A DNA stretch of 64,000 bases, from assembly GCA_951406725.2 (NCBI GenBank), contig OX597838.1, positions 37,076,001 through 37,140,000 of the forward strand, read 5' to 3'. A program made the position numbers and the translations under genes. This DNA is from Octopus vulgaris. Lineage: Eukaryota. Below, one piece after another: positions 5,851 to 42,805 of this stretch. The notes beneath the pieces were generated by a model that saw only the letters and a program-made list of their open reading frames with translations, had not been told where the DNA came from and searched no databases. Position 1 is the stretch's first letter. Each line of letters begins with the position of its first letter.

Positions 5851-5867
5851 ACCCAGCTAAGCCTGCA

Positions 5868-5909
5868 TCCAGAGACTAGTTTCTGAGTGCTGCTCGTCAT
5901 CAGACTGGA
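5868..5909 (-). ncRNA. Minimal type-I hammerhead ribozyme motif
   Basis: Minus: UCCAGU CUGAUGA CGAG-cagca-CUCA GAAA CUAG UC UCUGGA; intact core, palindromic stem III (ACUAGU), mismatches at the base of stems I and II. Confidence 0.75.
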
Positions 5910-5924
5910 GTAGCATGGTATGAA

Positions 5925-40718: not shown

Positions 40719-40789
40719 ATGCAGGACCGGTTTCAGACTCTTCAAATACGTTTGACAACGTAGATTTGATTTGTCTTCATCAGCTGCAT
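40719..40789 (-). ncRNA. Type-I hammerhead ribozyme, fully canonical core
   Basis: Minus: AUGCAG CUGAUGA AGAC-[extended hairpin]-GUCU GAAA CCGG UC CUGCAU; 6-bp stem I, palindromic stem III ACCGGU, GUC triplet. Confidence 0.88.
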
Positions 40790-40861: not shown

Positions 40862-40907
40862 AAAACTGCCTGACGAACAGTAACGTGAAACTCTGGGTAA
40901 CAGTTTT
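40862..40907 (+). ncRNA. Minimal type-I hammerhead motif
   Basis: AAAACUGC CUGACGA AC-aguaac-GU GAAA CUCUGGG UA ACAGUUUU; intact core, C-A mismatch at the stem I base; AATAAA about 25 nt downstream. Confidence 0.72.
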
Positions 40908-41307: not shown

Positions 41308-41604
41308 TATATACAAAATTTAGAGGAATGACCACTAATAGTGGACAGCCTGTATGCTAGATATAGACGTCAAACTCGCCATTTACCACGAAGAATGTGT
41401 TCTCAAAAAAAAAAACAAGTGAAACTAATTACTACGTAGGTAATCGTTTTTTTTATTTTCGTATATTTTCATTTGTCTTATTTTTAAACTTTGGTTTTTG
41501 CTGATTTCTTTTTTTTTGAGAACACATTCTTCGTGGTAAATGACAAGTTTGACATCTATATCTAGCATACGGGCTGTCCACTATTAGTGGTCATTCCTCT
41601 AAAT

Positions 41605-41613
<9 letters not shown>
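41308..41613. repeat. Inverted repeat, ~105 bp arms and ~95 bp spacer
   Basis: tttagaggaatgaccactaatagtggacagcc...gaagaatgtgttctcaaaa is mirrored by ttttgagaacacattcttc...ggctgtccactattagtggtcattcctctaaa. Confidence 0.9.
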
Positions 41614-41642
<29 letters not shown>

Positions 41643-41894
41643 TTAAAGATCCAACAGAGGTAGAATCAAAAAGAAAGGTACTCCATTTAATGAGAGATAA
41701 ATATCAATTTAATATACTGTCAAAAGAGCTACTAATAGTTTTATACTCTTATGATTCTTGAACAGCCATATTTATAAAATATGTCATGTGTCTTAAAGGG
41801 ATCTTACGTCATGGTATTGGCCAGATTTTTCAATGTTGTTATACATCGCTGGTCACAATGCCTTTTGCATTGTTTTAACTTTGAAATGATGCCA

Positions 41895-42100
41895 TAACAT
41901 TTTTCTAACACAATGACTTAAATATATTCTTTAACCATATAACATAAGCCTTCTGTATTTTTGTTACTCTTTTTTTTTTTTTTTATACATCCAAGCACGT
42001 GGTTGGATGTATAAAAAATAAAAAAGAGTGAAAAAACTACTGAAGGCTTGTGCAATGAGGTTAAAGAATATATTTAAGTCGTTATGTTAGAAAAATGTTA
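41895..42100. repeat. ~205 bp fold-back adjoining a hammerhead
   Basis: taacatttttctaaca...gacttaaatatattctttaacc is mirrored by ggttaaagaatatatttaagtc...tgttagaaaaatgtta; centre atacatccaa-gcacgtgg-ttggatgtat. Confidence 0.9.
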
Positions 42101-42131
42101 GAAAATTTTGTGTATAGTAACATAGTTTTTG

Positions 42132-42170
42132 GAGAAATAACCGGTTTCGTGTAAACTTTTCAAATTTCTC
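42132..42170 (-). ncRNA. Minimal hammerhead with U3-A8 core variant
   Basis: Minus: GAGAAAU UUGAAAA GU-uuac-AC GAAA CCGG UU AUUUCUC; perfect 7-bp stem I, G10.1-C11.1, palindromic stem III. Confidence 0.75.
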
Positions 42171-42805
42171 AAATTTCTTTACCTACATTGTATCATGTCT
42201 TTATTATGGAGTGAATATATATATATATGTATATATATATATGTTTTCATCCAAATTCAATCTCTCAATCACCGCTTCGTTCAGCTTTCAAGATTCAGAT
42301 AAAGAAATGTGTTAATTTCCACTCTCTTAGTCAAACAGATTTCTAAGTGATTAAGAAGTTTGCTTTGTAATCATAAGGCTCTGAATTTAATCCCACTTTT
42401 TGGGAGGAGGTTACTGATTGCCATCGATTCAGTGGTCGACGTGTACTTTATTTTATTAACCCAAAATAATGATAGATATAGCTGACCTCAGAACATAGAG
42501 AACCAGAAGAAGTGTTGCTAGGCATTGTTTATGATTCTGCCAGCTTCCAAATAACTGTTCTGTCGGGCACAGCAAGCATGCCCCCAAAACTGCTCTATTG
42601 GGGGTAGTCATTATGCCTCCACACCAGCTGGGATTTGGGAATTGGTATATGGGTGTTGAGTATCTTCCACGATGCTTAACAGCGAAATACCAAGTCTTAT
42701 AATCTATTGGAAGAGACTCTGTGAGACCCTTGGCAATAAGATGTTGTCTGCTTTCACGGAATTAACCAGAGCAAGTAAGATTGAGAGCTTTGAGCAGTAA
42801 AATGT

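Follow-up and report, generated by a model that had tools for sequence, protein, structure and literature searches.

A U3-A8 type I hammerhead motif in the pseudo-LTR of a Penelope-like retroelement family of Octopus vulgaris, likely to act as a dimer

Hammerhead ribozymes with a U3-A8 pair are natural and active in vitro (PMC3088659), and Perreault et al. (2011, PMC3088659) describe several natural examples in which C3-G8 covaries to U3-A8, along with stems II of two or even a single base pair and weak stems III. For Penelope elements of Schistosoma, ~1,300 U3-A8 motifs have been reported, dimers of which were weakly active (PMC4209133); one row in the supplement of that paper, 'Schistosoma_mansoni(4)', matches the motif described below in its UUGAAAA core and in U17. 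Dimer cutting that yields unit-length, possibly circular RNA is the model presented in that paper and in a review (PMC6765202). For the PAc hammerhead, cleavage is reported to need protein and to be dispensable for insertion in vitro (PMC11167929), and the role of the hammerhead in Penelope-like elements has been called unclear (PMC8557442). The original prediction proposed an independent family using the U3-A8 solution; this solution had already been published (PMC3088659; for Penelope elements, PMC4209133), and the motif represents a further family within an established class.

The window analyzed is a stretch of 64,000 nucleotides from Octopus vulgaris (assembly GCA_951406725.2, contig OX597838.1, positions 37,076,001 to 37,140,000). 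Read directly from its minus strand, positions 42170-42132 are GAGAAAU UUGAAAA GUUUACAC GAA ACCGGU U AUUUCUC, and sequence, descriptor scan, and shuffles identify this segment (42132..42170) as a minimal type I hammerhead motif of subfamily D with a U3-A8 core. The 39-nt motif, including its core, thus exists as first written. Its stem I consists of a 5′ arm, GAGAAAU (42164..42170), and a 3′ arm, AUUUCUC (42132..42138), placed by descriptor scan and pairing analysis and joined by seven Watson-Crick pairs. The 5′ arm is followed by the core U3 U4 G5 A6 A7 A8 A9 (42157..42163; descriptor scan and copy alignment) and by stem II (42149..42156), in which copy alignment, subfamily comparison, and pairing indicate two pairs, G10.1-C11.1 and U-A, with a 4-nt loop. 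G12 A13 A14 and the palindromic stem III, ACCGGU (A15.1 to U16.1), occupy 42140..42148 (descriptor scan and dimer model), and U17 is at 42139, so that hammerhead numbering places the predicted cut between 42139 and 42138, as had been claimed. The "perfect stems" ascribed to the motif are correct for stem I only; stem II is limited to 1 to 2 bp, and two copies are needed to form stem III. Since ACCGGU is unable to close a hairpin within a single copy and can pair only with a second one, the motif requires a dimer, as proposed.

Both strands of the window were scanned under strict descriptor rules, and looser rules were run as well. The strict scan returned only the U3-A8 motif and a C3-G8 motif at 40783, a canonical type I hammerhead whose loop II has 34 nt (the 40719 motif; 40720-40789, minus strand; descriptor scan and copy search). 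Three versions of the 3-8 pair had been reported for the window, but the third was not found: two relaxed descriptors detected no G3-C8 motif there, a looser or permuted form being possible. The repeat carrying the 40719 motif has 928 candidates at 93-97% identity, some of them paired either directly (2.7 kb apart) or in inverted orientation, and no open reading frame (ORF) was found within 1.5 kb of 15 copies. It is a family separate from that of the U3-A8 motif, as suggested, with no blastn or tblastn match when the L095 element of the U3-A8 family was compared with 14 other copies. The sequence GAAACCGGU, common to both motifs, gives no support for a link between them, since GAAA belongs to the core and the palindrome is also present in a 359-nt tandem family. 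This 359-nt repeat (L149-L176, e.g., L153:1460-1920) carries a C3-G8 hammerhead with the same ACCGGU palindrome, forms direct and inverted retrozyme-like arrays, and has no DNA similarity to the L095 element. Two further hammerhead-like segments were noted in the window. One, at 40862-40907 on the plus strand, has a CUGACGA core, a 2-bp stem II, a short stem III, and a 7-bp stem I with a mismatch beside the core; the other, at ~5866-5910 on the minus strand, has a CUGAUGA core and a stem III formed by the palindrome ACUAGU, and its first stem I position is a U-U mismatch.

Copy search and alignment place the U3-A8 motif in a 5′-truncated fragment of the 3′ pseudo-LTR (pLTR) of a Penelope-like family (41993..42215, minus strand). 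The fragment is 91-94% identical to the best other copies, is without the final ~25 nt of the family's 3′ end, and is truncated ~45 nt upstream of the motif, where it adjoins a (TA)n microsatellite found by repeat scan (42216..42244); family copies typically lie in (TA)n. Fold-back and copy analysis revealed a second, inverted fragment of the same pLTR, without the hammerhead, at 41894..42004 on the plus strand. The two fragments are joined at a CACGTG palindrome, a junction unique to this locus genome-wide. A MITE-like fold-back was rejected as a family trait, since this locus alone has the junction and the remaining copies terminate in ...CTCACC(TA)n. A separate fold-back repeat, with 106-nt arms that are 95% complementary, lies between (TA)n runs at 41308-41614. 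No ORF remains in the window copy, which is a solitary, 5′-truncated, older insertion and is likely inert; neither its Penelope-like membership nor its truncated solitary state was noticed in the original prediction. To judge by its sequence, such a solitary copy could cut only in trans, with U17 probably the less favorable choice.

Copies were sought in the 2.8-Gb genome with the stretch 42040-42215 as the query, which gave 1,396 candidate copies and 44 scored matches at 88-100%. The core pattern had 2,632 exact matches genome-wide and its reversed control had none; family-type loops were present in 99 of the 100 core-pattern matches listed. The collected copies establish the motif as multicopy and conserved rather than single copy. 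In copies L061, L063, and L095, a reverse transcriptase is followed by a GIY-YIG endonuclease at the C terminus; family copies matched RVT_1 (E value of 8e-08) and GIY-YIG (E value of 3e-04, just under Pfam's cutoff), and PF00078 and PF01541 are present in relatives. The L095 copy reads as an inverted tail, a pLTR with the hammerhead, an 850-amino-acid open frame, and a second pLTR with the hammerhead, the two pLTRs being 96.5% identical. This pLTR-ORF-pLTR partial tandem is direct in L095 and inverted in L096, L098, L099, and L100. The stop codon of the endonuclease precedes the motif by ~165 nt, and the next ATG follows after 208 nt. Family copies share a common 3′ end in (TA)n and show variable 5′ truncation and frequent 5′ inversion. 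In L095, a C-x4-C-x2-C linker precedes the GIY-YIG core, which contains two Cys and two His residues. The linker, the CCHH motif, and the (TA)n bias appear to match the definition of Neptune/Nematis given in PMC8557442, and we assign the motif, on these features, to the 3′ pLTR of a Penelope-like retroelement with a putative Neptune/Nematis-type linker. A retrozyme was ruled out, as there is no tandem array at the locus and copies run into a coding element. A second Penelope-like family, with 37-48% protein identity to L095 and an apparent decayed C3-G8 hammerhead in its pLTR, lies directly upstream of a family copy at L064:680-4430. Assembled RNA contigs from four runs, carrying other organism labels, cover the motif region; ends and strand cannot be read from the contigs.

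Constraint was assessed in 79 copies chosen by similarity of the endonuclease and not by the motif (from 150 scored; three duplicates were left out), 75 of which covered the motif. Mean conservation in these 75 copies was 0.99 for the 13 core columns, versus 0.785 for the upstream and 0.878 for the downstream flank. The U3 to A9 columns were conserved at 97-100% each (U3 and A8 in 74 copies each), G12 to A15.1 in all 75 copies, and U16.1 in 74; G10.1 was invariant and C11.1 was present in 71 (U in 4). The alignment column for N17 held C in 41 copies, A in 28, U in 5, a gap in 1, and G in none, an absence that rests on about four changes. From sequence, the motif would qualify as type I by its core rules: a Watson-Crick 3-8 pair, G12-A13-A14, A15.1-U16.1, G10.1-C11.1, and H17. 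With motif-anchored copies added, 126 of 136 copies spanned the motif and, 3 unassigned copies aside, fell into five subfamilies. Subfamily majorities differed at none of the 17 columns of the core and stem III, versus 64 of the 212 columns in the flanks (Fisher P = 0.003); in this comparison, D and E had in part been gathered by way of the motif, which favors conservation, and columns are nonindependent. Conservation alone does not single out catalysis, because other pLTR blocks (24 nt at +121 to +144 and 14 nt at −106 to −93) are equally invariant.

Pairing was analyzed in 32 sequences, 24 of them distinct, with 7 subfamily A rows that had been aligned without the A1.1 gap left out. Cells were paired in 93.5% of cases, versus 37-64% in slid controls, and stem I was 96% paired. 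The outer stem I pair was G-C in 14 rows, G-U in 4, and A-U in 5; the second stem II pair was U-A in 12 and C-G in 4 and was broken in 8 of the 24 distinct rows. Two-sided pair changes numbered 2 (shuffled mean, 1.6; 314/500), and the compensatory changes go back to a small number of events that many copies have inherited. In L075 and L083, which form one small clade, stem I is without either base of its innermost U-A pair, and the register is kept. Loop II differs between subfamilies. The division into variable parts (loop II, N17, and outer stem I) and fixed parts (the core, G10.1-C11.1, and the palindrome) follows hammerhead rules.

Trees built from flanks only (110 rows, without the window copy because of its short length) were ladder-like in the order E-D-C-B-A, with median terminal branches of 0.086, 0.049, 0.031, 0.022, and 0.022, respectively. 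A quick protein tree that included eight outside relatives placed E at the base and A inside B, without separating the order of C and D; mean divergence from subfamily majorities gave no ordering of subfamilies. Open frames of >800 amino acids were found in five copies, all of subfamily A. Along this order the cut triplet changes from GUU (E and D) to GUA (C) to GUC (B and A), GUC being the best-cleaved triplet. Stem II has 1 bp in E, and its second pair is U-A at first and then C-G in B and A, while the outer stem I pair passes from G-C through G-U to A-U. Subfamily A, the youngest, is without A1.1, so that a U standing between helix I and U3 has no partner (e.g., L095:1360-1400); the rest of the core is intact. 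The A1.1 column is gapped in 31 of 75 rows, two of them being the double-deletion clade. In a cis-dimer model (one or two copies per subfamily; nearest-neighbor parameters with no core energy), the double hammerhead is predicted to lie above the minimum by 7.4 kcal/mol in E, 5.4 in D (the window copy), 4.4 in C, 0.0 in B, and 0.3 in A, and B is the only subfamily whose predicted minimum is the active fold. For the window copy, the modeled minimum would be a collapsed dimer with an A14-U17 pair, and the ACCGGU duplex has a predicted probability of 0.98.

One tentative reading of this series, possible but not the one we would bet on, is that the family preserves, as a dated fossil record, the tuning of a ribozyme inside a retroelement, with shifts in triplet, stem II, outer stem I, and fold, after which subfamily A dropped A1.1 and worked with an extra U. 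If true, the series would show in vivo selection on hammerhead cleavage in Penelope elements, and that selection would stand despite the dispensability of cleavage for insertion in vitro. We found no literature that treats this family or follows a Penelope hammerhead through a series of subfamilies, and no published description of an extra U between helix I and U3, though forms with a short stem II or an extra U may be in print. The only new point is that successive generations of the element altered the motif while keeping its pairing.

We consider it likely that this U3-A8 type I motif, present in ~2,600 copies in a Penelope-like pLTR, cuts the element's RNA only as an ACCGGU-paired dimer and that the window copy is a lone remnant, probably inert. 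In a read-through pLTR-ORF-pLTR transcript, the two palindromes would pair and the stem I arms would cross, forming a double hammerhead with two active sites. U3-A8 would replace C3-G8, and the chemistry at G12 and at the 2′-OH of the G8 position would be as in other hammerheads; cleavage would probably be slow and helped by the element's protein. Cutting would release unit-length RNA, possibly religated or circularized, and integrated copies would derive from uncut or religated RNA, not from the linear cut product. The 5′ ends of insertions were surveyed in copies anchored on the 3′ end, in the first 90 of 1,044. One end fell within 3 nt of the cut, 58 copies read through, and 31 started downstream; there was no excess of ends just before the motif (23 at −100 to −1 versus 21 at 0 to +99). 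Of 22 copies holding the ORF start, none had its 5′ end at the cut site. These positions rule out the cut site as the 5′ boundary of insertions, and they fit uncut or religated RNA, in agreement with what is described in PMC11167929.

Other readings of the motif were weighed against these data. That A/U-rich repeat DNA happens by chance to resemble a hammerhead would agree with the fold of the monomer, whose minimum free energy (−4.6 kcal/mol; z score of −0.15) is no better than that of shuffles, and with Rfam covariance-model scans, in which no hammerhead family was among the 39 matches at an E value of ≤10 for 41700-42215 and no hammerhead was among the best 150 of 479 rows for the whole window. 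However, none of 60 blockwise dinucleotide shuffles, scanned on both strands, yielded an equally good motif (looser rules gave one), the location of the motif, a Penelope pLTR, is one in which hammerheads of this kind are to be expected, and constraint and covariation extend across the copies. Copy number, constraint, and subfamily comparison largely refute the chance explanation, to which we give almost no credence. It is also highly improbable that the window copy functions at its locus, where it and the C3-G8 motif lying 1.35 kb downstream would jointly cut a host transcript through the ACCGGU that the two have in common. The palindromes are identical and on the same strand, but the stem I arms would have to cross, and GAGAAAU cannot pair with CUGCAU, which rules out this heterodimer on pairing; moreover, both motifs are ordinary copies of high-copy repeats, and no second copy of the family motif was found in the window.

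The motif may instead be of hammerhead descent and kept for a role other than cutting, as a protein binding or folding site or as part of the pLTR promoter, with negligible cleavage. Several observations point that way: 5′ ends do not pile up at the cut, stem II is weak, the dimers of subfamilies C, D, and E are predicted to collapse, A1.1 is lost in the youngest subfamily, the pLTR has equally invariant blocks elsewhere, and hammerhead mutants of the Anolis element are reported still to insert in vitro (PMC11167929). We nevertheless regard such a role as unlikely, because the pattern of variable and fixed positions obeys hammerhead rules and because read-through is also expected if cut RNA religates into circles. 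Cleavage of the element's RNA by the paired dimer is thus the reading we prefer. Five natural, age-ordered variants of the 39-nt motif provide test material for the function of Penelope hammerheads: rates that increase as subfamilies get younger would favor selection on cleavage, while a dead youngest variant would mean that the element spreads without it. Descriptors limited to C3-G8 miss ~2,600 motifs in this genome.

Among described elements, Cercyon of Schistosoma mansoni (Cervera and de la Pena, 2014, PMC4209133), as presented there, shares the type I pLTR motif with U3-A8 and G10.1-C11.1, the palindromic stem III that works only in the dimer, and copies that are mostly solitary and truncated. 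It differs in stem II, which has 6 to 8 bp there and 1 to 2 bp here, and in an extra A9/G10.1 base that is absent here, and its stem I is shorter than the 6 to 7 bp found here; the 6-nt palindrome ACCGGU is closer to the fly, rotifer, and mosquito variants in the same paper. The variants of PMC3088659 have the same U3-A8 pair and a short stem II, and section 8 of that paper makes no tie to Penelope and does not track subfamilies. Neptune/Nematis, as defined by Craig et al. (2021, PMC8557442), share with this family a GIY-YIG with CCHH at the C terminus, the CX2-5CxxC linker, the pLTR tandem, the inverted 5′-truncated copy, (TA)n targeting, and the pLTR hammerhead, a likeness drawn from motifs and layout and not from phylogeny. 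PAc, a Poseidon element of Anolis (Frangieh et al., 2024, PMC11167929), likewise carries a pLTR hammerhead, and its reported insertions come from unprocessed RNA, with ends absent at the cut site, as here; its core is C3-G8 and overlaps the ORF start, whereas here the core is U3-A8 and the first ATG follows the cut at a distance of 208 nt. Metazoan non-LTR retrozymes, as described in PMC7229834 and bioRxiv 10.64898/2026.07.22.740005, also have a type I hammerhead acting as a dimer, but they are short noncoding tandem repeats, whereas the motif described here belongs to a protein-coding autonomous element.
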